NCBI GenBank assembly: GCA_964406795.1
Contig: CAYOTA010000007.1
Location: 5,898-69,897, forward strand
Length of the DNA: 64,000 nucleotides
Reading direction: 5' to 3'
From: an uncultured Gammaproteobacteria bacterium
GTDB lineage: Bacteria; Patescibacteriota; Microgenomatia; Levybacterales; GWA1-39-11
Made by a program: the position numbers and the translations under genes. The notes beneath the pieces are model-generated. The model was given only the letters and a program-made list of their open reading frames with translations. It was not told the DNA's origin and made no database searches. Below are positions 5,449-36,705 of the stretch, in pieces (positions within the stretch are counted from its first letter, which is position 1; every line of letters starts with the position of its first letter).

Positions 5449-6492
5449 ATGAATTTTTTAACTTTTTTTGCTCCTTTTTTAGTTGCACTTATTATAGCAC
5501 TTGTGTCCGTACCAATTACTATAAAGTTTGCCAACAAATTTAAGTTAGTGGACGATCCTAAGACTCATAAGCATCCTGCTATAATTCACAAGAAACCAAC
5601 TCCCAGAGCTGGTGGACTACCTATATATATAGCTGTTTTTGTATCTTCAATTATTTTTCTTCCTTATAGTTTTCAGCTCTCAATGATTTTACTTTCCGGC
5701 TTGGGCGTTATAACAGTTGGCTTACTAGATGATAAGTATGATCTGTCTCCCTACATTCGTTTTGGCACAAATATTTTATTTGCCGCTATTGTAGTTTTTT
5801 CAGGTATTACTATCCCCTTTGTAACAAATCCTTTTGGAGGTATTCTTCAATTTTCAAGCGCAGACCTATCTGCATTTTTCATTCCTCAAATACTTGCTAT
5901 CATTTGGATTGTCTGGGTCATGAACATGCTAAATTGGAGCAAAGGGGTAGATGGGCAGATGCCAGGAATCGCGACAATATCAGCGATTGTTATAGGGATT
6001 GCATCACTTCGTTTTCCAGCGCTAGCCGAAGGAAATATTGTTGTTGCAGAATTAGCATTTCTGACGGCAGGTGCCTCCTTAGGTTTTTTGTTTTTTAATT
6101 TTTACCCTGCAAAAATATTTCCCGGATATAGTGCAACTTTATTAGGATTTTTGATTGGTATCCTTTCCATATTGTCAGGTGTAAAGCTTGCAACTGCAGT
6201 GTTAGTGATGGGCATACCTACGGCAGATGCACTTTTTACAATCTTACGGCGGACTATGTCAAAAAAGTCCCCCTTTTGGCATGATAAAGGGCATTTACAT
6301 CACCTTCTCTTGCAGCTAGGCCTGTCTCAACGAAGTATAGCCATGTTTTATTGGTCTATGTCAGCTGTGTTAGGTGCTATAGCATTAACACTATCTAGTA
6401 AAGGTAAACTTTTTGCTATAATTTTATTAGTAGTCTTGGTTACTGGCGGAATATTGTTCTTGCGTTTTGTAGCACGAAAAAAAGCAGCATGA
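5449..6492 (+). CDS. Polyprenyl-phosphate sugar-1-phosphate transferase (WecA/MraY family, GT4)
   Basis: VDDPKTHKHP...RAGGLPIY, LLDDKYDL (DDxxD) and NMLNWSKGVDGQMPG are MraY/WecA signatures. The ATG at 5449 follows the upstream stop; the ORF-track start at 5407 is probably an over-extension. Confidence 0.85.
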   Translation: MNFLTFFAPFLVALIIALVSVPITIKFANKFKLVDDPKTHKHPAIIHKKPTPRAGGLPIYIAVFVSSIIFLPYSFQLSMILLSGLGVITVGLLDDKYDLSPYIRFGTNILFAAIVVFSGITIPFVTNPFGGILQFSSADLSAFFIPQILAIIWIVWVMNMLNWSKGVDGQMPGIATISAIVIGIASLRFPALAEGNIVVAELAFLTAGASLGFLFFNFYPAKIFPGYSATLLGFLIGILSILSGVKLATAVLVMGIPTADALFTILRRTMSKKSPFWHDKGHLHHLLLQLGLSQRSIAMFYWSMSAVLGAIALTLSSKGKLFAIILLVVLVTGGILFLRFVARKKAA

Positions 6493-8264: not shown

Positions 8265-8327
8265 GTCATTATAGTAGCAAACAACTACAATCTTCTCAAC
8301 ATGCCAAAGACTAAGTTCTTGACAAAT

Positions 8328-8354
8328 TAGCACTCAATGTGATAGAGTGATAAC
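8328..8354 (+). promoter_or_regulatory. CIRCE operator (HrcA binding site) overlapping the hsp20 promoter
   Basis: TTAGCACTC-aatgtgata-GAGTGATAA against the consensus TTAGCACTC-N9-GAGTGCTAA: left arm perfect, right arm one mismatch. A TTGACA -35 hexamer lies at 8320-8325. Confidence 0.75.
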
Positions 8355-8417
8355 ATATAAAACAAAGCCTTTTTGAATTGTATCTTATACGAAAAGTAAC
8401 GAAAGGAGGTGAGCAGT

Positions 8418-8858
8418 ATGGCAATAATCAGACTAAATCCTTGGAGCATTGACCGTATATTTGATGATGACTTTAATTTTCCTACTATTCATGGAGTATC
8501 CAAATTAATGGGTCAAGGAATAAACATTTACGAAACACAAGACTCAATAGTAGCAGAAACTGCTATCCCTGGACTTTCTGAAACAGATGTAGATGTAACT
8601 TTTGAGGACGGTGTTGTTAGAATAAGCGGGACAAAAGAGGAGAAACAGGAAGAAAAAGATAAAAGAAGGTACTTCATGTCTTCAATGATTGCATCATTTA
8701 ATTATTCATTTAGAATTCCACAAGGTGTTGTAAAAATACAAGAACCTAAGGCAGAACTTGAGGATGGTATTTTGAAGCTCACCTTCAGTAAGGTTGAGAA
8801 AAAAGAACCTAAAAGAATCAAGGTTTTTAAAAAAGCAAAAGTTAAAGCAATTTCATAA
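8418..8858 (+). CDS. Hsp20/alpha-crystallin small heat shock protein
   Basis: Alpha-crystallin domain (ETQDSIVAETAIPGL...VDVTFEDGVVRISG...SFRIPQGV). A GGAGGTGA SD sits 6 nt before the ATG at 8418; the ORF-track GTG at 8409 is unlikely. Confidence 0.85.
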   Translation: MAIIRLNPWSIDRIFDDDFNFPTIHGVSKLMGQGINIYETQDSIVAETAIPGLSETDVDVTFEDGVVRISGTKEEKQEEKDKRRYFMSSMIASFNYSFRIPQGVVKIQEPKAELEDGILKLTFSKVEKKEPKRIKVFKKAKVKAIS

Positions 8859-21373: not shown

Positions 21374-21485
21374 TATTTCTCTAAAGTATGCGTTTCTTGA
21401 ATCCAACTTTATCAAAAATAGGGTATTAATACAAGGTTTATTACATTGTTCAACAAATCTTATTGAATAACCTCTTGACAAGAAT

Positions 21486-21512
21486 TAGCAGTCATGTTAT
21501 ATTATTGCTAAG
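21486..21512 (+). promoter_or_regulatory. Degenerate CIRCE-like inverted repeat upstream of hrcA
   Basis: TTAGCAGTC-atgttatat-TATTGCTAA has 3 mismatches to the CIRCE consensus but the correct N9 spacing. Confidence 0.4.
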
Positions 21513-21594
21513 TTGCTGGAAGATAGAATGTTGAACATAGAATATTGATTTTTATTAAAAATTTCTACATTCTGCTTTCTACATTCTATATTCT

Positions 21595-22317
21595 ATGTAT
21601 GACTTAACGCCACGACAGGTAGACATTTTAAAACTGATCGTAAAAGAGTACATTGACAACGCAGAGCCAGTTGGGTCAGAAACACTTGAAAAAAAACATG
21701 ACATAGGTGTTTCTCCGGCAACCATTAGAAACGAAATGGCAAACATGGTAAAGCTTGGATATTTGTCCAAGCCGCATACATCTGCTGGAAGAATTCCCAC
21801 AACCAAAGCTTTAAAACTTTACATCAATGAATTGATGAAAGAAAAAGAAGTATCAGTTGCTGACGAAGTTCAGGCGCGTGAGCATGTGTGGGACTTACGT
21901 AAAACTGAAGATAAATTTTTGCGCGAAATAACACGGGATTTAGCCGCAAAAACACATTCTTTAGCGGTTACAACCACAGATGATGGAGACATATACTATG
22001 CAGGATACGCTCACATTTTAGAAATGCCTGAGTTTTATGATATAGACATTGCTAAAAATTTGTTAGCCATTTTAGATAACAGTTCACATTTTGAGATGAT
22101 TGCAAAAAAAATTGAAAACGATTTTGGAATTTTCTTAGGAGATGAACTGGAGCTGGAATTATTTAGACCGTACAGTTTTATCTTTTCACGATTTGACACA
22201 AAAAGTCATTGTGCTGGATCAATCGGAGTTGTAGGACCGGCTCGTGTTAAATATGATTCGCTTGTTCCAACAGTCAAATTTTTTGGAGGACTAATTGACG
22301 ATGTTGCTGAGTGGTAA
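21595..22317 (+). CDS. hrcA: Heat-inducible transcription repressor HrcA (short, about 240 aa)
   Basis: N-terminal wHTH LTPRQVDILKLIVKEYIDNAEPVGSETL is a classic HrcA signature. It is followed by grpE and dnaK. Confidence 0.85.
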   Translation: MYDLTPRQVDILKLIVKEYIDNAEPVGSETLEKKHDIGVSPATIRNEMANMVKLGYLSKPHTSAGRIPTTKALKLYINELMKEKEVSVADEVQAREHVWDLRKTEDKFLREITRDLAAKTHSLAVTTTDDGDIYYAGYAHILEMPEFYDIDIAKNLLAILDNSSHFEMIAKKIENDFGIFLGDELELELFRPYSFIFSRFDTKSHCAGSIGVVGPARVKYDSLVPTVKFFGGLIDDVAEW

Positions 22318-22354
22318 TGGGAAGAGGGAAAATTTGGAATACAGAATGTAGAAT

Positions 22355-22891
22355 ATGGACACAAAAGTAATAAAACAAAAAAAGGATGAAGAGATAGACA
22401 CGCAAGATTTAGAATTGGATGACAAAAATGCAGAAGAAGAGGTAATTGTAGAAGACGAAGAAAATGTAGTGCAGGATAATGCACTTGAGGAAAAGGTGAA
22501 AAGCTTGGAAGACCAGTTAAAACGAGCAGTTGCAGATTATAGAAATTTAGAAAACCGAAACAGAGAAGAACGGATAGAATTTGTAAAGTATGCAAATAAA
22601 AATTTGATAGAACAGTTGTTGCCGGCATTTGACACGTTGTTGTTGGCCGAAAAGTATACGGATGATCAAAACTTTAAAGTAACAGTGAAACACGTTTTGG
22701 AAGTTTTAAAGCAGGCGGGAATTGAACGGGTTGAAACGTCAGGGAAAAATTACAATCCGGTGACAATGGAAGCAATAGAAGTAGTAGAAGGAGATACAGA
22801 CAAAGTAGCTGAAGAGCTGCAGCCGGGATTCACTCTATTTGGTAAAACAATAAGACCTGCAAGAGTAAAAGTAGGCGGGAAAAAAGAGTAG
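22355..22891 (+). CDS. grpE: Nucleotide exchange factor GrpE
   Basis: Acidic N-terminus, a coiled coil, and a C-terminal GrpE beta-domain (FDP...AMEP-like motifs). Confidence 0.85.
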   Translation: MDTKVIKQKKDEEIDTQDLELDDKNAEEEVIVEDEENVVQDNALEEKVKSLEDQLKRAVADYRNLENRNREERIEFVKYANKNLIEQLLPAFDTLLLAEKYTDDQNFKVTVKHVLEVLKQAGIERVETSGKNYNPVTMEAIEVVEGDTDKVAEELQPGFTLFGKTIRPARVKVGGKKE

Positions 22892-22979
22892 TAAGTAGCA
22901 GGTATTATGTAGAAAGTATATCTTGAATTTTTTCTATACTTAATACATACTACTTAATACGTAATATATTTTTAAAAAT

Positions 22980-24917
22980 ATGAGCAAAATTATAGGAATT
23001 GATTTAGGAACAACAAATTCATGTGTAGCCGTTATGGAGGGTGGAGCGCCAAAGGTTATATTCTCTGCCGAAGGCCGAAATGTTACACCATCTGTTGTTG
23101 ATCCAGTTGACCGTGTGGTAGGTGACGTTGCAAAGCGCCAAATGGTCTTAAAGCCAAAGCGCATTCTCTTCTCCATCAAAAGACTTATGGGTAGACGTTT
23201 TAAGGATAAGTCTGTCCAAGATGATTTAAAACTTTTACCATACACAGTTAAAGAAGGAAAAGAAGGAACAGCAGTTGTAGAAGTGGACGGAAAAACTTAC
23301 ACGCCTCAAGAAGTGTCTGCTATGATTTTGCAAAAATTAAAAGCAGATGCTGAATCATACTTGGGTGACAAAGTAACTCAGGCAGTTATTACAGTTCCTG
23401 CATACTTTGATGACGCAGAGCGCCAAGCAACAAAACAGGCTGGAGAAATTGCCGGACTTGAAGTGTTACGTATTGTAAATGAACCTACAGCAGCAGCGCT
23501 AGCTTACGGGTTGGACAAAAAGCATGCGCATACTATTGCAGTATATGACATGGGAGGCGGAACATTTGATGTTTCCATTCTTGAACTGGGAGACGGCGTG
23601 TATGAAGTAAAAGCAACCAACGGAGATACTCATCTGGGTGGAGATGACTTTGACCAAAAAATAATAGGATATTTAGCTGACGAATTTAAAAAGGAAAACG
23701 GAATTGACTTACGATCTGATCCTCAAGCACTACAAAGACTGAAAGAATCTGCTGAAAAAGCAAAGATTGAATTATCCAGTTCAACAGAGGCAGAAATTAA
23801 CCAGCCATTTATAACTCAAGGTCCCAACGGTCCACTTCACTTAACTATGAAGTTAACACGCGCAAAGCTGGAAGATATTGTTGGAGATCTTATCACCAAA
23901 TCATTTAAACCTGCAGCAGACGCGCTAAAAGATGCAGGCCTTAAGGCAGCTGACATAAATGAAGTTATTTTGGTGGGTGGTATGACTAGAATGCCAAAGA
24001 TTGTTGAAGAAGTTGGAAAATTCTTTGGAAAAGAACCTAATAAGTCAGTTAATCCTGACGAGGTTGTAGCTATTGGTGCGGCAGTCCAAGCAGGAGTACT
24101 AGGTGGAGACGTTAAAGACGTATTACTTTTGGATGTGACCCCATTAACACTTGGAATTGAAACACTAGGCGGAGTAGCTACCCCACTTATTAATAGAAAT
24201 TCCACAATTCCTACCAAAAAATCACAAGTTTTCTCAACTGCAGCTGATAACCAAACTCAAGTAGAAATACATGTAACCCAGGGCGAGCGTCCTATGGCAG
24301 CAGATAACAAATCACTTGGCCGCTTTGTACTTGACGGGATTCCTCCGGCTCCTCGCGGAGTACCACAAGTTGAAGTTACTTTTGACATAGATGCGTCAGG
24401 AATACTGTCAGTAACTGCAAAAGACAATGCGAGTGGTAAAACTCAGAGTATTAAGATTACAGGAGGTACAGGTCTGTCTAAAGATGAAGTAGAAAGGATG
24501 ACAAAAGAGGCTGAGGCAAATGCCGAAGAAGATGAAAAGAAAAAGGAAATGATAGATGTTAGAAATAGGGCTGATTCACTTATTTTTACCGCTGAAAAGT
24601 CATTGAAAGATCTAGGAGATAAAGTTCCAGCTGAGATTAAGACTGATGTTGAGGCAAAAATAGTTGCTCTTAAAGAGGCTATAAAAGGAGAAGATAAAGC
24701 AGATATTGAGGCTAAAACAACAGAACTTTCAGACCATTTATCAAAAATAGGAGAGTCTATGCAGCAACAACAGCCAGGAGGACAGCCTGCAGGTGAGCAA
24801 CCAGGTGCAGAGTCATCAGCAGGTGAAACAGCGAGTGCCGATACAGGTGAAGAAGCGAAAGAGGAAAAAGATAAAAAAGCAAAAGAAGAAGCAGTTGAGG
24901 GAGAAGTAGTAAATTAA
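22980..24917 (+). CDS. dnaK: Hsp70 chaperone DnaK
   Basis: [14 protein letters not shown] and DMGGGTFD; full Hsp70 NBD plus SBD. Confidence 0.97.
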
Positions 24918-25395: not shown

Positions 25396-25552
25396 TTTTA
25401 TAGTATAATTATTAATATGAAATTTGCATCATTACCAATGCCTACGCGAGACATCCCTATGGGAATGGGATGTCATGTGCGTGGGAGACAGATGTAGCTA
25501 ATAACTACTAACTAATAACTGAAATAGGCCTCCCACAAAGGGGAGGTTTTTT
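25379..25552 (+). promoter_or_regulatory. Putative promoter plus structured leader ending in an intrinsic terminator 12 nt before the next start codon
   Basis: TTGAGA-16nt-TATAAT at 25379-25406. An 8-bp hairpin GACATCCC/GGGATGTC sits at about 25452-25479. The terminator stem CCTCCC-acaaag-GGGAGG plus T7 is at 25527-25552. TGGGAG at about 25490 could pair with the terminator arm CTCCCA as an antiterminator. Confidence 0.45.
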
Positions 25553-26427: not shown

Positions 26428-26739
26428 GTGTATATGGCTGCAGGTGTGCCTTGCAAAATTAATGAAGTGCAGACAGATTTCGGTTGTTTACCAAATGAGC
26501 CTGTTCCGTTTATCGCAAAATTTTACGGAATAGGACTGGGTCTTATTGGAGGTATAGCTATATTGTTTCTCATCTACGGCGGGTATACGGTTATGACATC
26601 TGCAGGACGCCCTGATAGACTGCAAAAAGGTAAGGAATATATTTATTATTCTATTGCAGGTTTATTATTGGCTATTTTTGGATTTGTCTTTATAGAATTT
26701 ATTGCAGGACCGTTGCTGAGAATTCCCGGATTTTCATAG
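26428..26739 (+). CDS. Small two-TM hairpin protein, VirB2/TrbC-like T4SS pilin candidate
   Basis: 103 aa with an N-terminal Cys pair (CKINEVQTDFGC), then two hydrophobic helices separated by SAGRPDRLQKGKE, matching the TrbC/VirB2-like topology. It lies immediately upstream of the VirB6-like gene. Confidence 0.4.
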   Translation: MYMAAGVPCKINEVQTDFGCLPNEPVPFIAKFYGIGLGLIGGIAILFLIYGGYTVMTSAGRPDRLQKGKEYIYYSIAGLLLAIFGFVFIEFIAGPLLRIPGFS

Positions 26740-26742
26740 TAT

Positions 26743-29157
26743 ATGAAAAAATTTCTGCCCGTATTTATAAGTCTTTGTGCTTTTTTATTCCTTATTTTTT
26801 TAGTAAGTTCTCCTACCTTTGCATCAAATGGTGCGCCTACATTGGCACCCACAATCGCAGCTGGCCAGAAATTGGGTACTGATGCAACAGATAGATTTGT
26901 GCCTGATTCCAATGTTACATTCGTTGGGAAAACTGCAAGTAGAGCAGGTGATTTTTTAGACCTAACACTCAGAAATTATGACTGGGCATGTGTGACAAGA
27001 AATCCAGTAGATAATACCTGTGACAATAGAAACAATCCGCTAGCTGTATTTTGGGCCACTATCAGAAATATTATTTACGCAATTTTGGTAATCGTAGTGT
27101 TGGCCGCAGCCTTTATTATGATTGCAACTCGTGGAAGAAGTTTGACTATCACGCGCTTCATTCCCCGCTTTATACTCATAATTCTTTTAATAACATTTTC
27201 ATTTTCACTTGTTCAGTTTTTGTATCAAATTGCAGATATTATTCAGGGGTTTTTCCTGCGTACCGGAGAGGGGGCTGCTAGGCATATTATCTCAACTCGC
27301 GACCTCATATTTATAGGGTTTGATTACAAAAACTTTACAGGACTCAGGCTCCCGGGTCCGGAAAATGATGAGTCCGCATTTATGACACTTCTTTTAGTAC
27401 GACTTACCGCTGTTACTTATTACGTTATGACAGGAATTTTGATTGTGAGAAAAATTATCTTGTGGTTTTTTATAGTCTTGTCCCCAGTCTTTCCTCTTTT
27501 ATTGTTCTTTAAGATTATTAGAAATACAGCCAAAATTTGGATTGGTGAATTTTTCAGATGGCTGTTGTATGGTCCACTTTTTGCAATTTTCTTAAACGGT
27601 TTAGTTGTTTTATGGAGTAGCGGAAGTGAGACGAATCCTGGTATTCCGCTCGGGTTTACTATGGTAGGCGTAGGGGATCCAGGAAAAGTTATTTATCCAA
27701 CAGCCGTTAATATTTTGATTGGTGGACCTGGTCAAGCATTAGGTTTTAATAATTCAGTAAATACCCAAGACACATTTGCCTTGTATGTTGTAGCTCTCAT
27801 CATGTTATGGGTTGTTATGATTTTGCCGTTTATTCTGCTTAAGATTTTTCTTGACTTTGCCTCAGGATTGTCCATCCAAAACAACAGAGCATTTAAGCAG
27901 ATGTGGAATAAAGTTTCTCCCGTAACGCCTCCTCCGCCGTCTGGCCCACCACCTCCGGCAGGAGCTGGTTTGGCTATGAAAATGCCTTTTGGAGCCTCAA
28001 AAACTATTACTATGCCGGCTAGTACCTATACCAGTACAGGCTTAGCACGTGAGTTGCCGAGATCTGAAAATATTTCAAGATCAGTTCCAACGATTGCAAG
28101 AATTCCTGAAAATATGCGTATCTTACAGCAGGCAAACATAACAATTCCAAGACTAACGGATATTGCGCGTTTCGAAAAAACCATCGAAACACGTGACACA
28201 TCCAAAATTTCTGAAGTAACGCGCATGACAACTTCTCTGCAAAGAATTTCAAACCCTAGCTCAGTTTCCTCATCTGTTGAAAGAAGCAGGTATCAGCAGG
28301 TTAGAACAGAATTGGTGAAAGAACGCCAGAAGGGTAATGTGCTGGCTACATCTATTTTGAATGCAGCAAATGTTACAAACAACACAAATAATAACACTTC
28401 AAGTTCAAGAGTGGGTGGTTTGCATACTCAGTCAATTCAAAACAATTCATCCACAATAAATAATTCTCAAAGCTCAACTCTTAATAATTCACAGAGTTCT
28501 ACTGTTAATAACAGCCAGGTTTCAACAAGTATGTCAACGGGAGTTAAAAATGCATCAACAAATGTAGTAGGAGGCCAAGTTACAAGCGACGGAGTGCCAA
28601 AGACTGCGATGACAACTCCTTCCGCTGTTCATTTACCCGCAGTAAACAAAGTTCAGCAGGTAAGTATTGAGGATTATGAAGAGGTCAAGAAAATGTGGCT
28701 TGAAACATATGAAACATCCAGTCCTCCAACTGACTTAAATGGTAAAAAATCAACCCGGGATGAATGGATTACCAATGATATGAACAATATTAATCAAGCG
28801 GTGTCACTTTTGAATTCAGTGGATCCAATTAGAGTTAATGAGGGTATGAATATGGTCTCAAATATCCTTCCGTTTTTGATGGTTGGAGGATTTTCAAAAA
28901 CAGAGGTTGTTGCCTATCTTAAAGCAAAACTTGAAGCAGGAAAACAAGTAATGTCTTCCGGAACTAATAAAAAAGATGAGGATGACACGCTTCTTGACCG
29001 TAACACTCACACAACACAAGCAAGTAAGTATATGGAAGCACAACAAGCAGCTGCAATTCCAACTGATACGCCAGGCGCCCCAAGAGAAATGAGTGATGAA
29101 ATGTATAAAACTCCTACTGCTATTCAAAATAAGACTGAAGAATCAATTAAAAAATAG
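26743..29157 (+). CDS. VirB6/TrbL (TcpH-like) polytopic membrane protein with long low-complexity C-terminal tail
   Basis: Signal peptide and a Cys-containing exodomain, then 5-6 TM helices with VirB6-like spacing. The following roughly 400-aa tail is N/S/T/Q-rich with a PPPPSGPPPPAG segment. The architecture resembles Gram-positive conjugation TcpH. Confidence 0.45.
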   Translation: MKKFLPVFISLCAFLFLIFLVSSPTFASNGAPTLAPTIAAGQKLGTDATDRFVPDSNVTFVGKTASRAGDFLDLTLRNYDWACVTRNPVDNTCDNRNNPLAVFWATIRNIIYAILVIVVLAAAFIMIATRGRSLTITRFIPRFILIILLITFSFSLVQFLYQIADIIQGFFLRTGEGAARHIISTRDLIFIGFDYKNFTGLRLPGPENDESAFMTLLLVRLTAVTYYVMTGILIVRKIILWFFIVLSPVFPLLLFFKIIRNTAKIWIGEFFRWLLYGPLFAIFLNGLVVLWSSGSETNPGIPLGFTMVGVGDPGKVIYPTAVNILIGGPGQALGFNNSVNTQDTFALYVVALIMLWVVMILPFILLKIFLDFASGLSIQNNRAFKQMWNKVSPVTPPPPSGPPPPAGAGLAMKMPFGASKTITMPASTYTSTGLARELPRSENISRSVPTIARIPENMRILQQANITIPRLTDIARFEKTIETRDTSKISEVTRMTTSLQRISNPSSVSSSVERSRYQQVRTELVKERQKGNVLATSILNAANVTNNTNNNTSSSRVGGLHTQSIQNNSSTINNSQSSTLNNSQSSTVNNSQVSTSMSTGVKNASTNVVGGQVTSDGVPKTAMTTPSAVHLPAVNKVQQVSIEDYEEVKKMWLETYETSSPPTDLNGKKSTRDEWITNDMNNINQAVSLLNSVDPIRVNEGMNMVSNILPFLMVGGFSKTEVVAYLKAKLEAGKQVMSSGTNKKDEDDTLLDRNTHTTQASKYMEAQQAAAIPTDTPGAPREMSDEMYKTPTAIQNKTEESIKK

Positions 29158-29174
29158 ACATACTATCTTTCGTC

Positions 29175-29203
29175 TTGATTAGGTTTTAAAAGTTGCATAC
29201 AAT
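29175..29203 (+). promoter_or_regulatory. Sigma70-like promoter for the clpC-like gene, probably giving a leaderless mRNA
   Basis: TTGATT (29175-80), 17 nt, TACAAT (29198-203), and the ATG at 29210 is 7 nt after the -10. Confidence 0.35.
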
Positions 29204-29209
29204 AAATAT

Positions 29210-31927
29210 ATGTTCGGAAATTTATTTACTCCAAAAAAAGACGATGTGTTAAATGGTTTACCTCAAGATGCGCCTGTAGTGTCTACTGAATCACAAGAGA
29301 CTATGAGTATGGGGCAGCAGTCGGGTATATCCAGCTCAGATCAGGACATGAATGCCGGAGGAATAGATCCCCAAAAAAGGCAAAGTATGTCAGCTCTTTC
29401 CAAACTTGATCCTCGATCTTTGCAGGTTTTGCACCATGCTGAGCAAGAAACTAAACGCGTTCAAGCCTCTCAAATTGGCTCTGAACAGCTGCTTTTAGGA
29501 ATGTTTTATGACGGTGAGATTTTTCAACTTCTAGAAAGTTTCCAAGTGGATGTGGCAAAGCTGACACAGCAAATTCAAAGCAAAGAAAAACCTGGCGGAT
29601 TTACCGGACAGCCCACCATGAGTACTGCCGTAATTCAGATATTTGATGAGGGTTACAAAAGTGCAAAAAAAAGAGGCGCTTCCTTTGTCTCCCCGGAAGA
29701 TATATTGGTTGGATTCTTTGCGGATCCCGCAACAACCTCATTTTTAAAAGCATTTGGAATTGAAAAAGGAAAACTGGATGATAAACTTTCCAAAACAACT
29801 TCTTTTGCCCAATCATCTAGAAAATCAGTGTTGGAAAAATATGGAATTGATCTGACTCAGGAGGCAAAAGATGGAAAGCTTGACCCAGTTGTAGGCCGAG
29901 ACAAAGAAACAGAGCGTTTAATTCACATTTTATTAAGACGCACAAAAAATAACCCTATTATTATAGGTGAAGCTGGAGTTGGAAAAACGGCTATTGTTGA
30001 GGCACTTGCACAAAAAATAGTAGAAGGATCAGTTCCTCATGATCTACTAGACAAAAGAATTATTCAGCTTGAATTGTCATCCCTTGTGGCAGGTGCGTCT
30101 CACAGAGGTGAGTTTGAGGAGCGACTTCAGGATGTAATTCATGAAACCCAGGCTTCAAATGGGAAAATTATTTTGTTTATAGACGAGATACACACGCTCA
30201 TTGGCGCTGGAGACACGGGCGGAGCACTTGACGCGTCCAATATCATAAAGCCATATTTGGCCCGTGGACAGCTGCAACTTATCGGAACTACCACTACGGC
30301 CGAATACAGAAAGCATTTTGAAAAAGATAAGGCATTTGAAAGACGTTTCCAGTCAGTGTTAGTAGATGAACCTGAAGAAGAAGTAGCGCAGCAAATGTTG
30401 GACGTACTGCGTCCTAAATATGAAAAATTTCACTCTGTAGTTATAACCCCAGAAGCAATTGAGGCAGCAGTTCATTTGTCAAAAAAATATATTGGTGAGC
30501 GCTATCTTCCGGATAAGGGAGTTGACCTATTGGATGAGGCTGCCGCTGAGGTAAAACTTCAGCACACTGAGGGCAAGCGTGCAGATAATAATGTGGTGAA
30601 AGCTGACATTGAAAAAGTGGTTGCAGCTTGGACCGGAATTCCTATAACCAGACTTACTGAAGATGAAAGTCAAAAACTAATTCATTTGGAAGACACAATT
30701 CACAAGCGCTTTATAGATCAAGAAGAAGCTGTAGGATCAGTATCTGAGGCTGTAAGACGCGGAAGAATTGGACTCTCGGCCGCCAACAGACCCATTGCGT
30801 CATTTATTTTCCTAGGCCCTACGGGTGTAGGTAAAACAGAGTTAGCTAAAACGCTTGCTGAAATTTTATTTGGCCGCGATGACTTACTGGTCAGACTTGA
30901 TATGTCTGAATATATGGAAAAGCATGAGGTAGCAAAGCTTATAGGTGCACCTCCTGGGTATGTAGGATATGAGGAGGGTGGACAGTTAACGGAGGCGGTA
31001 CGTGCAAAACCCTATTCTATTGTGTTGCTGGATGAAATTGAAAAAGCTCATCCTGATGTGTTTAATATTCTTTTGCAGCTTTTGGAAGATGGTCGCTTAA
31101 CTGACAATAAAGGAAACACAATTTCATTTAAGAACACTATCATAATTGCGACTTCAAACATTGGAAGCTCAGTTATTCAGCAGACATTATTAACACAAGC
31201 ATCCAACGGAACGCAAGTAGTATCCCCGGAAGAAGAAGCTAAAAAGTATTCTGAACTGTCAGCAACCCTTATGGAAGAGTTGAGAAAATTCTTTAAACCG
31301 GAGCTGTTAAATCGTTTTGATGACATAGTTATGTTTAAACCCTTACGAATGCGCGATATGGCCCAAATTGCAAAATTGGGAATAGGAAAAACACAAAAAT
31401 TACTGGAAGAGCAAAAAATCCATTTGGAAATAACAGAGAAAGCAATTGGAATATTGGCAAAAGAAGGATACGATCCAGTTTATGGTGCGCGACCTTTAAG
31501 ACGCCTTGTCCAGACCGCAATTGAAAATCCCATTGCAGTTCTATTAATCAACAAAACATTTGTGCCGGGGGATATTATTAAAATCGATTATGATGATGCA
31601 AAGTCTGAGTTTACCTTTACAAAAGGTGTACCTGCGGTTGCAGGGCCTCAACCATCTATATCTGAGACAGCACAAAATCCAGTTGTTCAGCCTCAATACG
31701 TGAATCAAGCACCTCAAGCTTCAGGTGTGTCAGCTAATCCATCAGGTATTGCCCAACCGCAACAGACTCAGCCCATGAATGCTATGCCTCAGCAGCCAGT
31801 AGATGATCCAAATGCAGGAATTTTGTCACAGATTGCGCAGGAACACACAGTAACACCTATACCATCAGCACCAAATGGTACTGCTCCTCAGCCTGGAGTT
31901 GGCGGAACCATGATGCAACCCGCATAA
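29210..31927 (+). CDS. clpC: ClpC-like class-I AAA+ unfoldase (Clp_N, D1, short linker, D2) with disordered N- and Q/P-rich C-terminal extensions
   Basis: Two Clp_N repeats; D1 Walker [10 protein letters not shown] and Walker B ILFIDEIH; D2 [12 protein letters not shown] and LLDEIEKAH; GAR sensor-2. There is no long ClpB M-domain. No [LIV]G[FL] tripeptide occurs at the ClpP-loop position ([22 protein letters not shown]). Confidence 0.85.
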
Positions 31928-31949: not shown

Positions 31950-33881
31950 ATGTGGAAAGAAAAGATTTTACCGTTTCTTAAAAAATATTACCCTTTTTTA
32001 CTCCTTATTCCCCTTGTAATACTCGCATTGTTTTTTGTTCTTAGAGTGTTTGCACGTGACATAGTGGTAAATCCTGGGGGAAATCCGTTTCCCAAAGGCT
32101 CCGAGTATTCAAATGACCAAATAATTGTGAAGTATAGAAAAGGACAGTCACCTGAAGAACTTAAAAAAGATGGAAGACTGGAACAGGAAAAGTCACTTGC
32201 AGATACGCTAGTAGCATTAGGTGTGGAGTCTCAGCAAAAACTATTTACCTCAGTGGATGATTTTTTGAAAAACTATTATTTACTGTACTTAAAGCAGGGA
32301 ACAAACATTCAAGATTTATATAAGAAATTGTCAGATGTTCCTGAGATAGACTCTATAACACCTGACTATATTTTAAAAACTGATAAGCCTGATAAGGAAA
32401 CAACTAATGTACCCAGTGTGCAGTCACCACCCATCAGTGATGAAGAACCAAACGACCCGTATTTTGTGGACGGGCAGCAATGGGATATGAATTCTATAGA
32501 TATGAAAAAAGCGTGGAATATAAAAAGAGCTGGAGCTGAAACTGTAGTAGCTGTGATCGACACAGGCGTTGATTATAATCATCCTGATTTGGTGGGGAAG
32601 GTAATAAAGGGAAAAAATTATATTAATAACACAGATGATCCAATGGATGATCATGGGCATGGAACTCATGTAGCAGGGACTATAGGCGCAATTACAAATA
32701 ACGGAATTGGTATTAGCAGCGTTTCATGGGGAGCCAAAATATTAGCAATTAAAGCGTGCGATAATAATGGGGATTGTATAACATCAAACGTAGTAAGAGG
32801 CATATCATACGCTTTAAGCCAAGGTGTTAAAGTTATTAATATTAGTATTGCGGGGGTTGGGTCATGTACACGCGAAAACTTTTTTGGGGGGGACCGTGTG
32901 TATGAAGACGTTATAAAAGAGGCAAATAGTAAGGGCGCAATTATGATAGTTGCTGCCGGAAATAATAACCAAGATGCGAAAAACGAAGTTCCTGGTGCAT
33001 GTGAAGGTGTTGTAGCGGTTGGAGCCACCAACCAATCAAATGAAAGGTGGGTAAGTAGTGACTCTACGGGATCTAATTTTGGAGACAAAATTGATTTATC
33101 GGCACCTGGGTCGCCCATTCTTTCAACAAGTGTCCAAAATGGGTACAGCATAAGAAATGGTACGTCTATGGCAGCTCCTCATGTTTCCGGTGTGGCTGCT
33201 TTATTATTATCATTTAATAAAAATTTGTCATCCAGTGAACTTAAAAAATGTATAGTTGAAAGTGCTGGAAAGATAGAATCTGACCGCTACATTGGTGGGC
33301 TTTTAAATGCGTACAATGCGCTTATGAGGTGTGGTGCAAGTAATCCTCAAAGTATATCTGCGCTAACACCCACATCTATCCCCTCAATTCTTCCAACCGC
33401 GCCAGACGAGATTATTGGAGGTAACAATATAGATAATTATTCTATCTCAGGCACTATATTTATAGATCAGAATAATAATGGTTTGTTTGACAGTTCTGAA
33501 AAAACTCTGGGTGGAGTGCAGGTACTAGTCTCCCCCACAGACCCTTCAACCAGTATACTTGCCAATCCGCGTGGATTTTATTTTTTTAATGACTTAGGCA
33601 GGCCGGATGATTATTTAGTGTCATTAGTAATTCCAGGAGTAAGCGCAGTTAATCTTCCCACCAGAACTGTTACGTTAAGTAACACAATTAAATCAGCACG
33701 TATAAATATTCCTGTATCTCCCTTGGCACTTCCCTCCCCTTCCCCGAGGCCTACAAATATGGCTCAAAATGGTGCTCCTTCTCCTACCTCATCTCAAAAT
33801 GTACCGCAAGGTTGCTACTATGATCCTGGATGTTTTAGTAGTAATCAGTCGGTTCAGGCATGCTCTTTTACGTGTGACTGA
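31950..33881 (+). CDS. Membrane-anchored subtilisin-like (S8) serine protease with C-terminal SdrD-B/CnaB-like domain and Cys-rich tail
   Basis: Catalytic triad motifs AVIDTGVDYNHPDL, HGHGTHVAGT and GTSMAAPHVSG. N-terminal TM plus propeptide. C-terminal ...GTIFIDQNNNGLFDSSEKTLGGVQV... B-type fold and a CYYDPGCFSSNQSVQACSFTCD tail. Confidence 0.85.
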   Translation: MWKEKILPFLKKYYPFLLLIPLVILALFFVLRVFARDIVVNPGGNPFPKGSEYSNDQIIVKYRKGQSPEELKKDGRLEQEKSLADTLVALGVESQQKLFTSVDDFLKNYYLLYLKQGTNIQDLYKKLSDVPEIDSITPDYILKTDKPDKETTNVPSVQSPPISDEEPNDPYFVDGQQWDMNSIDMKKAWNIKRAGAETVVAVIDTGVDYNHPDLVGKVIKGKNYINNTDDPMDDHGHGTHVAGTIGAITNNGIGISSVSWGAKILAIKACDNNGDCITSNVVRGISYALSQGVKVINISIAGVGSCTRENFFGGDRVYEDVIKEANSKGAIMIVAAGNNNQDAKNEVPGACEGVVAVGATNQSNERWVSSDSTGSNFGDKIDLSAPGSPILSTSVQNGYSIRNGTSMAAPHVSGVAALLLSFNKNLSSSELKKCIVESAGKIESDRYIGGLLNAYNALMRCGASNPQSISALTPTSIPSILPTAPDEIIGGNNIDNYSISGTIFIDQNNNGLFDSSEKTLGGVQVLVSPTDPSTSILANPRGFYFFNDLGRPDDYLVSLVIPGVSAVNLPTRTVTLSNTIKSARINIPVSPLALPSPSPRPTNMAQNGAPSPTSSQNVPQGCYYDPGCFSSNQSVQACSFTCD

Positions 33882-33887
33882 TAAAAC

Positions 33888-35417
33888 ATGCATAGATTAG
33901 GTAAAAAATATTTATTCCTTAAAGATCGAAAAGCGTTTATTTTAATTAGCGTGTTTTTGTTTTTAGGTATAGTTGTCTCTACGCTTTTCTTAAGTGCAAA
34001 ACATAGTACTAATGAGCAGGGTACAGCAGATGTTAAAAGTGGAACATGGGAAATAACAGTTGCATATAAAACAGAAACAAAAAAATTAGAACTTAAAAAA
34101 CTGCAGCTGCTATCTGAAAAAATTAATTCTGACAGCCGTACTGCATTATTTTCACCGTATACACTTTCTGTGATTGGAAAAAGTAACACAGTGCTTTATT
34201 CATCTCCGGTATTTATTGCAACAGAATACATATTTAGCATTTATGCCGGCTCGCGGGAATCACCAGGATTTAGCAGTTTTTCACAAGATGTTCCGCCAGT
34301 ACTTCCCAGGCCCCCAGCTGAGTTGGAGACTGTGTTATACGCGCCTTTAATTGCAGATTCATCTGAAATGGTAATTAAAAATGACGGAAAACAAGAATTA
34401 TCTATAAATTTGCCGGGTATAACAGGAATCTCTCAAAGCTCAAAAATTGCTCAGTCAGTATGCGGACCTTTACAGGTAGTGTTTATGAGTGACGGTTATA
34501 CTGATTTTCAAAAATTTCATCAAGATGTTGAGAGATTGAAGCAGACATTCTTATCAGCAGATCCGTATACTAAGAAACCAAATATGTTTGACTTCAAGAC
34601 AGTGGATAACGCACAAAGTCTTGGTTGCATGCAGAGCCTTGGATGTATTCGTAACCCAGATGTTCCCCGTATTGGTCGGCAAGCGTTTCCTCAGGCATCA
34701 AAATTTATAGTTATTGCAGATATTTCATATAATAATCCACCTCAGGGAGCCGCACTGGGAGTTATAAATGGGATAGGGGGGAATGTTATGGCTTTTCCAA
34801 GAAGTGCATATGTGCAGGGTCGCGAACTTGTAAATGAGATAGCAGTGCATGAATTTTTGGGTCATGGGGTTGGATTTTTGTACGATAGATACGTAGTAAA
34901 AAACAACACTCAGAGTGTAAAACGTAACTGTTCCAATAATCCAGCTGGGGAGTCGTTTTGGTCAGCGGCAGGTGTAACCCAAACTTACCCTGGGTGCTTT
35001 GCTGAGTCAAGATTTGCGCCAACCCCAAATGACTGTACGACCCCGGGACATCCAACACTCGTAAGTGGTGGTTCATTAAGTTCAGTTATGAGCGCAGGGG
35101 GATGTGGAGCAACACAATTTGATACCGTTGAAAAATATTGGATTGAAAACTATATTTTTCCAAAATATTCTAGCTGTAGTGATCCCACTACCACACTACG
35201 TCCTACGATGACAAACAGTCCAAGTGTTTCTCCAACTGGAGTTGTGGTGTGTAATCCGGACGGTGTAGGAGGGATTGATTTTGCTGATTTGCGCCTGGCA
35301 AGGCGTGAAATTGCTGGCATAGCTTCTACCTCACACGCCGCATGTATGACTGGTGGGCAGAGCACAGTATTTGCTGATTTGCGCAAAATACGGCGTATAA
35401 TTGCTGGTTTGGAATAG
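33888..35417 (+). CDS. Secreted zincin-like metallopeptidase candidate (M64/IgA-peptidase-like motif) with C-terminal dockerin-like repeats
   Basis: N-terminal [18 protein letters not shown] resembles the M64 HEFGHsfggLaDEY motif but with one extra residue (HExxxH). The C-terminus [23 protein letters not shown] ... [13 protein letters not shown] looks like a dockerin loop-helix duplication. Confidence 0.45.
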
Positions 35418-36378: not shown

Positions 36379-36705
36379 ATGGGTATTCTGCTCTATCCCT
36401 TTGTAGTGCTTTTATTTTGGTATAAAGATGGTCTCTTGTCTATCTTTTCATTTTTCGGATCACTTAATGATTATTCTCTAAGGCTATTCTCACTTCCCGG
36501 TCTTTTTGCCACATACTTCAGGCCGCTTAAAAACGAATACAGAAAAAACCTTATTTTGTTTTCAATTCTATTTGGAATGGTTGTTAAAACATTTCTTATC
36601 ATAGGTTCATTGACTATTTTTTCCATAATTTTACTGTGTGAACTAATCGTCATTAGCATATATTTAATTTTCCCGCTTTTGCCAATTATTTTATTTTTAG
36701 GATGA
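36379..36705 (+). CDS. Small 3-TM membrane protein, translationally coupled to the downstream membrane ClpC paralog
   Basis: 108 aa and hydrophobic, with an ATGA stop/start overlap with 36702. Confidence 0.4.
   Translation: MGILLYPFVVLLFWYKDGLLSIFSFFGSLNDYSLRLFSLPGLFATYFRPLKNEYRKNLILFSILFGMVVKTFLIIGSLTIFSIILLCELIVISIYLIFPLLPIILFLG

Follow-up and report, generated by a model that had tools for sequence, protein, structure and literature searches.

Clp905, the 905-residue product of the open reading frame (ORF) at 29210..31927 on the forward strand, is a soluble two-ring Hsp100 protein with neither a ClpP-docking loop nor an M-domain. The gene lies in a stretch of 64,000 nucleotides, referred to as the window, which covers positions 5,898 to 69,897 of contig CAYOTA010000007.1 (GenBank assembly GCA_964406795.1), a genome placed in the Levybacterales of the Patescibacteria or candidate phyla radiation (CPR). 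It is proposed here, with a probability of about one half, that Clp905 is a Patescibacteria-lineage Hsp100 of ClpC/ClpB-type ancestry, which would act as a ClpP-independent, ATP-driven unfoldase and would have its partners or clients in an envelope module encoded next to it. That the protein unfolds substrates without ClpP, and without coupling to Hsp70 through an M-domain, is considered highly probable. Its cooperation with a VirB2/VirB6-like envelope module is put forward tentatively. All functional statements on Clp905 made below are drawn from its sequence and context. Clp905 belongs to the known Hsp100/Clp kind and is not a new kind of system.

Domain architecture and missing coupling elements

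Clp905 has the two AAA+ rings of class 1 Hsp100/Clp proteins, as seen from the order of its Pfam domains (Clp_N, AAA for D1, AAA_lid_9, AAA_2 for D2 and ClpB_D2-small), from a panel of motifs and from fold matches to ClpC and ClpB. No transmembrane (TM) segments were found, so the protein is soluble. The original prediction, made from the DNA letters of this stretch, had described a soluble ClpC-like unfoldase; the reading frame is real, and the absence of TM segments and the Hsp100 domains were confirmed. In the motif panel, Clp905 was set beside ClpA, ClpB and TssH of E. coli, three ClpC-type proteins, ClpK and ClpL. The Walker A and B motifs, the arginine fingers of D1 and D2, sensor 2 and the GYVG pore loop of D2 are canonical in Clp905. 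The earlier statement that the catalytic motifs of both rings are canonical is therefore correct for the ATPase motifs and the D2 pore loop, but not for the D1 pore loop, in which a histidine replaces the tyrosine. The reference ClpA, ClpB and ClpC proteins read KYRGEFE at this site. The tyrosine is also found in ClpK and ClpL, and E. coli TssH has a valine at the same position. The exchange to histidine is shared by 117 of the 120 homologues listed, the set to which all family counts out of 120 refer. This count rests on those homologues and not on the loci collected from metagenomes, whose search pattern itself contained GASHRGEF.

The ClpP-docking loop is missing. When Clp905 was aligned to S. 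aureus ClpC with HMMER, no hydrophobic-Gly-aromatic tripeptide was present at residues 660-669. The tripeptide was likewise absent in a MAFFT alignment of the panel, in which E. coli ClpA has IGL and the three ClpC proteins have VGF, LGF and TGF. In the AlphaFold model, helices 653-665 and 673-694 are joined at the docking site by a turn of 7 residues. Across the 120 homologues, the segment at this site is hydrophilic and hypervariable and measures 35-141 residues, and a tripeptide of the [LIVM]-G-[FL] type occurs in only two of them, as expected by chance. Since the model shows a short turn and the segment is hypervariable in the family, there is no hidden docking loop at this site. A bona fide [LIVM]G[FL] loop, which had been named as a possible objection, was not found. 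The predicted loss of the docking loop is thus upheld by two sequence alignments, the structural model and the family as a whole. ClpP itself was not detected by tblastn with ClpP, ClpX and Lon of E. coli as queries, either in the window or in CPR neighbourhood DNA amounting to 1.18 Mb, a search whose power is too low to speak for genome-wide absence.

Some family members (L155-L160; P0024, P0097, P0110; L163, L169) have low-complexity inserts of 100-336 residues exactly at the former ClpP-loop site, or C-terminal tails of 440-527 residues. The large inserts suggest that this surface position tolerates big insertions.

The M-domain, which had been reported as lacking, is wholly missing. Measured in the same alignment columns, D1 and D2 are separated by 29 residues in Clp905, 27 in ClpA, 75 in ClpL, 84 in ClpC and ClpK, 115 in TssH and 145-148 in ClpB. 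The linker therefore resembles that of ClpA and not that of ClpC, to which it had first been likened. It measures 29 residues in 113 of the 120 homologues, and no coiled coil lies between D1 and D2 in the AlphaFold model. The core of the original prediction stands: Clp905 is not a canonical partner of ClpP, and it is not a canonical disaggregase of the ClpB type either.

Both ends of the protein are disordered, with a predicted local distance difference test score (pLDDT) below 50 at residues 1-54 and 809-905 of the AlphaFold model. The first 63 residues are rich in Ser (14%), Gln (11%) and Asp (9.5%), and this composition agrees, as does the low pLDDT, with the Ser/Gln/Asp-rich leader of about 60 residues that had been noticed earlier. 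The leader also starts with a conserved motif. A hexapeptide of the MFGNLF type opens 116 of the 120 homologues, with Lys or Arg at position 9 in 78% and at position 10 in 85% of them. Four Gly codons, five Leu codons, and both codons each of Phe and Asn are used across the motif. Because the synonymous codons vary, selection is on the peptide and not on the 5′ end of the mRNA, and a signal in the mRNA was ruled out as the reason for the conservation. The conserved motif also validates the annotated start codon. The whole extension before Clp_N, motif and spacer together, varies from 4 to 212 residues across the family and is followed by a conserved entry into Clp_N.

The C-terminal tail is rich in Gln (15.7%) and Pro (17.6%) and disordered, as described before, but its length is about 100 residues instead of 130. 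A terminal G[TASV]x[ML]x[PKS] motif (GTxMQP type) is present in 53 of the 120 homologues. A second motif, GILxDIAxEH, occurs in the tail of 17 of the 120 homologues and is seen in the closest subclade. The suggestion that the two tails may serve as interaction handles gains support from these short motifs, which are conserved in otherwise variable, disordered sequence.

Relation to known Hsp100 families

Among the close homologues listed, all those with a named source come from Patescibacteria, and the closest are from Levybacteria of the Microgenomates group. Their source labels are generic Clp ATP-binding subunit, ClpC or ClpB. Clp905 scores below every NCBIfam Clp equivalog cut-off. The highest NCBIfam bit score was obtained for ClpB (TIGR03346), with 883.6 bits in two stretches against a cut-off of 1232.1. 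The scores were 719 against 993 bits for ClpA (TIGR02639), 692.6 against 884.95 for ClpV/TssH (TIGR03345), and 674 (ClpG) and 694 (ClpK) against 1900 for NF033607/NF033606. The best sequence match of solved structure was S. aureus ClpC (703 bits). ClpC was also the best fold match, followed by ClpB and, far lower, by ClpA.

In a bootstrapped distance tree of 542 core columns, the Clp905 family forms a clade of its own together with Clp789, a paralogue encoded further downstream, outside ClpA, ClpB, ClpC, ClpK, ClpL and TssH. Deep nodes were weakly supported, and the claim is therefore limited to an own clade that is not nested in known ones. A robust grouping with ClpL or ClpB, which had been named as a possible objection, was not seen; Clp905 falls into its own Patescibacteria clade and below the NCBIfam cut-offs. 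Literature searches on ClpB or ClpP in CPR/Patescibacteria, on M-domain-less Hsp100s and on Clp proteins of Southlakia gave no account of the family. The clp genes in the transcriptome paper on TM7x bear locus tags of the host. Judged by its sequences, the Clp905 family is large, uncharacterised and specific to Patescibacteria.

Each of the known families shares some traits with Clp905. Core identity is 54-57% with ClpB/ClpC, 48% with ClpL and 44% with ClpA. ClpC of the Bacillota (ClpC1 in Actinomycetota), with 54-56%, has the same Clp_N double repeat, D1, D2 and D2-small. It differs by an M-domain of 84 residues, an x-G-F loop and the D1 tyrosine, where Clp905 has the 29-residue linker, no loop and the histidine. 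The M-domain of ClpC binds MecA and forms the resting state. An mcsB/mcsA/ctsR context is not present around Clp905. ClpA of the Pseudomonadota also has no M-domain and, alone among the references, aligns with Clp905 over one unbroken stretch. However, it has an IGL loop, the D1 tyrosine, the lowest of the identities just given and a separate branch in the tree, and Clp905 has no clpS neighbour. ClpB/Hsp104 lacks the ClpP loop, its core identity with Clp905 is 54-57%, and the Clp905 gene is found near dnaK. In contrast to Clp905, it carries the D1 tyrosine and an M-domain of 145-148 residues, the element for Hsp70 docking.

ClpL and ClpG/ClpK are alike in that they have no ClpP loop and in that N-terminal elements give autonomous targeting; the C-terminal extension of ClpG is disordered (PMC11006417). 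They differ by M-domains of 75-84 residues, the D1 tyrosine and a core identity of 48-53%, and they are plasmid or island genes and not core genes. ClpL had been expected to be the closest known analogue. This is not borne out, as ClpL keeps its 75-residue M-domain and has its own N-terminal domain in place of the Clp_N found in Clp905. The definition of the ClpG/ClpK class includes an extra N1 domain and an M-domain, and by its scores and its linker, Clp905 is not a member. ClpV/TssH has neither the ClpP loop nor the D1 pore tyrosine (AGASVRGEFE), and its gene lies inside a conserved envelope-machine cluster. However, it has an M-domain of 115 residues and 41% core identity, and the neighbours of Clp905 are not genes of a type VI secretion system.

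Some CPR lineages (the L162-L178 group and locus L087 from Saccharibacteria) keep an M-domain of ClpC length, yet they have the histidine pore loop and no ClpP loop. A few members of the family have linkers of 55-59 residues. The mixed sets of traits and the intermediate linkers suggest a stepwise reduction. The Hsp100 at 9899-12277 of L087, a metagenome-assembled genome (MAG), combines an 84-residue M-domain with the pore loop GSKHRGDFE and lacks the ClpP loop, which suggests that the loss of the loop and the replacement of Tyr by His preceded the loss of the M-domain. In the divergent subgroup formed by the metagenome loci L162-L178, the M-domain measures 84 residues and the N-terminus is again aromatic but of another sequence, MADYFDFI.

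Among the matches listed for the full-length family alignment, most were ordinary ClpC of other phyla, and they served as an outgroup panel. Outside CPR, an Hsp100 without M-domain is no rarity: among 150 cluster representatives, at least 9 have none but carry an LGF-type loop. Hsp100s which lack both the M-domain and the ClpP loop and have Clp_N were seen in a Fervidobacterium MAG (L052, 10031-12250) and on the C. botulinum plasmid pCBG (L011, 3001-5241). They are 737-746 residues long, have a phenylalanine in the D1 pore and appear uncharacterised; the plasmid copy lies between the gene of a multidrug and toxic compound extrusion (MATE) transporter and metK. Since the individual losses are seen elsewhere, the Clp905 family is distinguished by the combination of traits and by its lineage-wide spread.

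Gene neighbourhood and its conservation

The conserved gene neighbourhood, which had not been remarked in the original prediction, is the most informative clue to the function of Clp905. The window contains, in this order, a CIRCE-like operator (controlling inverted repeat of chaperone expression), hrcA-grpE-dnaK, a hairpin, the genes of a VirB2-like and a VirB6-like protein, Clp905, an S8 peptidase, an M64-like peptidase, dnaJ, a TM protein of 108 residues and Clp789 (Table 1).

Table 1. Clp905, its parts and its neighbours in the window
Feature	Position	Strand	Remarks
CIRCE-like operator and hrcA-grpE-dnaK operon	21485..24917	+	terminator-like hairpin at 25526-25549 divides the operon from the Clp module
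VirB2-like small protein with 2 TM segments, family U0	26428..26739	+	Pfam T4SS_pilin PF18895, 28.9 bits against a cut-off of 26.6
VirB6/TrbL-like polytopic membrane protein, directly upstream of Clp905	26743..29157	+	signal peptide and ~6 TM segments
Promoter-like TTGATT (29175-29180), 17-nt spacer, TACAAT (29198-29203)	29175..29203	+	6 nt before ATG; fits leaderless mRNA
Coding sequence of Clp905, soluble two-ring Hsp100	29210..31927	+	
Conserved N-terminal decapeptide	29210..29239	+	family consensus M[FL]GNLF[NST][QST][KR][KR]
Disordered low-complexity spacer of variable length, residues 11-63	29240..29398	+	
Clp_N double-repeat N-domain, residues 64-205	29399..29824	+	PF02861 in two stretches; alignment of ClpA/B/C N-domains; model helices 54-203
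D1 AAA+ module, residues 206-454	29825..30571	+	Walker A GEAGVGKT, Walker B ILFIDEIH and arginine fingers FERRFQ intact
D1 pore loop with His298 replacing the canonical Tyr	30089..30118	+	
D1-D2 linker of 29 residues where ClpB, ClpC and ClpL carry the coiled-coil M-domain	30542..30628	+	M-domain absent
D2 AAA+ module and D2-small, residues 474-806	30629..31627	+	Walker A GPTGVGKT, Walker B, pore loop GYVGY and sensor 2 GARPLRR intact
Segment at the ClpP-docking-loop position, residues 660-669	31187..31216	+	no x-G-F/L tripeptide
Disordered Q/P-rich C-terminal tail, residues 807-905	31628..31924	+	two short motifs, including terminal GGTMMQPA
Exported S8 subtilase, directly downstream of Clp905	31950..33881	+	PF00082; N-terminal signal/anchor
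Exported M64-like putative metallopeptidase	33888..35417	+	weak PF09471 match; signal/anchor
TM protein of ~108 residues, family U1, directly upstream of Clp789	36379..36705	+	31 loci; no Pfam match
Clp789, membrane-anchored degenerate Hsp100 paralogue of 789 residues	36702..39071	+	groups with the Clp905 family in the tree

For comparison, 80 loci were taken from metagenomes with an alignment of D1 only, and the loci of three named homologues were added. The resulting set contained 77 unique loci, and neighbours were classed by iterated hidden Markov models. Among the 30 loci with at least 8 kb upstream, a VirB6-like gene was present in 29 and dnaK in 21. The VirB6-like gene occurred without dnaK in 8 of these 30 loci, and in 6 of the 8 the gene was divergently oriented. 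When the 42 loci with at least 3.5 kb upstream were considered, the VirB6-like gene was directly upstream in 23 and within two genes in 30. Downstream, a Clp789-like gene was present in 23 of the 39 loci with at least 6 kb, and an S8 or M64-like peptidase gene came next in 21. In some relatives (L017, 12730-12733; L016, 10604-10638), the gene of the exported S8 or M64-like peptidase overlaps the Clp stop codon, which suggests translational coupling of the cytosolic unfoldase with a secreted protease. In the L162-L178 subgroup, the VirB6-like gene lies 2-3 genes upstream in divergent orientation, no dnaK operon is nearby, and the flanking genes are housekeeping genes for EF-G and RpoC.

The family of the VirB2-like protein (81 members) is present in 50 of the 77 unique loci, mostly directly upstream of the VirB6-like gene. 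Pfam TrbL matches of 16-26 bits fall on the same TM core in many orthologues of the VirB6-like protein, two of them above the cut-off of 25.9. The AlphaFold model of this protein has a pLDDT of 84.8. In a Foldseek search of the PDB, the top four matches, and 7 of the 10 best, were TrwI/VirB6 of plasmid R388, and the top four had probabilities of 0.93-0.99. Besides the TrbL matches and the fold match, the neighbouring protein of the T4SS_pilin family supports the VirB6 label. At its C-terminal end, the VirB6-like protein carries a conserved domain of about 110 residues (…GGFSKTEVIAYLKAKLEA…). The 26 unique orthologues of Clp789 have two N-terminal TM helices and have lost the acidic pair of the D1 Walker B motif and the D1 arginine fingers. 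Neither of their pore loops is aromatic, and their D2 ATPase site is intact.

For a type IV secretion system (T4SS), a single cluster with VirB4, VirB6, VirB3 and VirB8 was looked for; only the VirB2-like and VirB6-like proteins are present. A mobile element and a complete T4SS locus were both ruled out, as there is no VirB4, VirD4 or relaxase nearby, no GC anomaly, and the flanks are housekeeping genes (methionyl-tRNA synthetase, carbamoyl phosphate synthetase and the dnaK operon). A survey of T4SS in Patescibacteria from 2025 makes no mention of Clp, chaperones or DnaK and describes VirB6 as hard to detect in Microgenomatia (PMC12102498).

As for regulation, a CIRCE with one mismatch (8327-8353) precedes the gene of an Hsp20 protein (8409-8858). 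Upstream of hrcA, the best promoter-like site is overlapped by a degenerate CIRCE with three mismatches (21485-21511). No CIRCE was found near Clp905 or Clp789 in the window. Because of this, and of the terminator after dnaK, Clp905 is not visibly part of the HrcA regulon. An apparently leaderless promoter had been proposed directly upstream of the Clp905 gene. Both boxes and the spacer are present, and their position supports the claim, but the consensus score of 9/12 is at chance: 54 sites were found, compared to 58 ± 9 in shuffled sequences. A match to the sigma-70 consensus was thus discarded as promoter evidence, being no better than in shuffled sequence. The position is more telling. A TAnAAT box ends 5-8 nt before the start codon in 11 of the 47 genes of the window, where about 0.5 would be expected, with a sharp peak at 6-7 nt. 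Boxes like CACAATAAAT also precede the ATG in many Clp905 orthologues. No Shine-Dalgarno motif is present before Clp905, and such motifs are rare among the genes of the window. Leaderless transcription looks like a habit of this genome.

Mode of action, alternatives and significance

In the mechanism proposed here, a hexamer of Clp905 would thread its substrates mainly through D2. D1 would serve assembly and hydrolyse ATP, and it would hold the substrate less firmly. In ClpL, a mutant of the pore-1 tyrosine is partly active and a pore-2 mutant is dead (PMC11006417), and a D2-driven motor is therefore plausible. The secretion-dedicated Hsp100 of E. coli, TssH/ClpV, likewise lacks the D1 tyrosine. 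As no M-domain is present, neither a ClpC-style resting state nor docking to Hsp70 in the style of ClpB would be available. Targeting would then have to use Clp_N and the tethered motifs, MFGNLF..KK at the N-terminus and GTxMQP at the C-terminus. The main partners or clients would be found in the envelope module, i.e., the VirB2-like pilin, the VirB6-like protein, the exported S8/M64-like peptidases and Clp789, a view suggested by the conservation of the gene neighbourhood. Clp789 could be either the membrane receptor of Clp905 or a subunit that assembles with it.

Several observations weigh against this proposal. The M-domain is kept by every characterised ClpP-independent Hsp100 (ClpB, ClpG, ClpL and ClpV). 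The Foldseek matches to VirB6 have weak E-values (0.03-0.16), and the topology prediction is ambiguous for the C-terminal half of the VirB6-like protein. In the divergent group, homology to the VirB6-like protein is only probable (hhalign 87%), and in the Saccharibacteria relative L087, neither a VirB6-like gene nor dnaK lies in the 10 kb upstream. Core identity between syntenic loci is 75-79%, compared to 64-69% for ClpB or ClpC across phyla or classes. The loci are hence only moderately divergent, and synteny may partly reflect plain inheritance. Finally, no VirB4 or VirD4 was found among the scanned ORFs of the window or the scanned large unlabelled neighbours in related loci, so the module is not a recognisable T4SS.

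A bolder form of the proposal would turn this last point around. In CPR bacteria of the Microgenomates type, Clp905 and Clp789 could together be the cytoplasmic motor of a minimal envelope conduit, formed by the VirB6-like channel and the VirB2-like pilin, in which they replace the VirB4/VirD4 ATPases. Such a machine would unfold and export, or assemble, surface proteins, for instance the adjacent S8/M64-like peptidases or the pilin. This is considered improbable. If true, a secretion or pilus system driven by Hsp100 proteins, of a sort not known before, would exist, with a bearing on how CPR bacteria live as epibionts.

The main rival explanation is a stand-alone, general cytosolic disaggregase similar to ClpL and ClpG, which would bind aggregates directly through its tethered aromatic N-terminal motif and refold proteins with the help of neither ClpP nor Hsp70; the envelope neighbours would then be mere inherited order. 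We regard it as unlikely, if less so than the other rivals considered below. Clp905 shares the missing IGL/F motif with all known disaggregases, but all characterised ones keep the M-domain that it lacks (PMC11006417; motif panel). ClpL targets aggregates through aromatic residues of a dynamic N-terminal domain, and ClpG has its disordered C-terminal extension (PMC11006417); Clp905 offers MFGNLF and a disordered tail in their place. It is the only Hsp100 of the window with intact pore loops, although the D1 pore tyrosine is lost. A housekeeping role is suggested by the great frequency of the family in the tiny genomes of CPR bacteria, and the limited divergence of the syntenic loci would fit inherited order. 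The gene stands beside hrcA-grpE-dnaK-dnaJ in 21 of 30 loci. However, the linkage with the VirB6-like gene is steadier (29 of the same 30) and survives rearrangement, and CIRCE is found at hsp20 and hrcA but not at Clp905.

According to a second rival explanation, Clp905 is the CPR equivalent of ClpB, a disaggregase coupled to Hsp70. The substrate-binding domain of DnaK would grasp the N-terminal MFGNLFxx[KR][KR] and recruit the Hsp100 to aggregates coated with DnaK, and the tethered peptide would replace the M-domain. The motif, with a hydrophobic core and a basic flank, has the classical composition of a DnaK-binding peptide, and it is kept in nearly all homologues under selection at the peptide level. 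On the other hand, this coupling is read from sequence alone, and no Hsp100 is known to couple to Hsp70 through such a peptide. The dnaK operon adjoins in most loci, but Clp905 and dnaK belong to separate transcription units. The top NCBIfam bit score is that of ClpB, and the sister subgroup that keeps the M-domain has the other N-terminus (MADYFDFI) and is not beside dnaK. The linkage to envelope genes and the histidine pore loop are left unexplained, and the explanation is held to be improbable.

That Clp905 is still a partner of ClpP, docking in a non-canonical way, for instance through a motif of its C-terminal tail or an adaptor, is very improbable. In its favour are the names of homologues in databases ("ATP-dependent Clp protease ATP-binding subunit" or ClpC), which are automatic annotations, the best solved-structure match to ClpC, and the conserved C-terminal motif on a flexible tail, which recalls the docking of proteasomal ATPases by their C-terminal tails. 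Against it stand a loop site without a conserved x-G-F/L in 120 homologues, two tails without any conserved IGL- or LGF-like motif, and the lack of a ClpP match in the window and the 1.18 Mb of neighbourhood DNA from CPR, although this is a weak test.

Patescibacteria account for a large share of the diversity of bacteria, and their proteostasis toolkits are minimal. The main Hsp100 found in them appears to be an uncharacterised design, with no ClpP loop, often no M-domain, a histidine in the D1 pore and conserved, tethered peptide motifs. If this protein is active, Hsp100 targeting and regulation would be possible without the two elements that are seen in the field as the coupling devices. 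As regards annotation, thousands of proteins of the family bear the label "Clp protease ATP-binding subunit" or that of ClpC/ClpB, neither of which is backed by the sequence.

Furthermore, the conserved position of Clp905 beside a pseudo-Hsp100 anchored in the membrane and VirB2/VirB6-like proteins suggests that protein unfolding is linked to the cell surface. In Patescibacteria, T4SS genes have been reported as essential for epibiotic growth (PMC12102498). The conserved pairing of Clp905 with the pseudo-Hsp100 and the VirB2/VirB6-like proteins is a testable lead into the surface biology of CPR bacteria.

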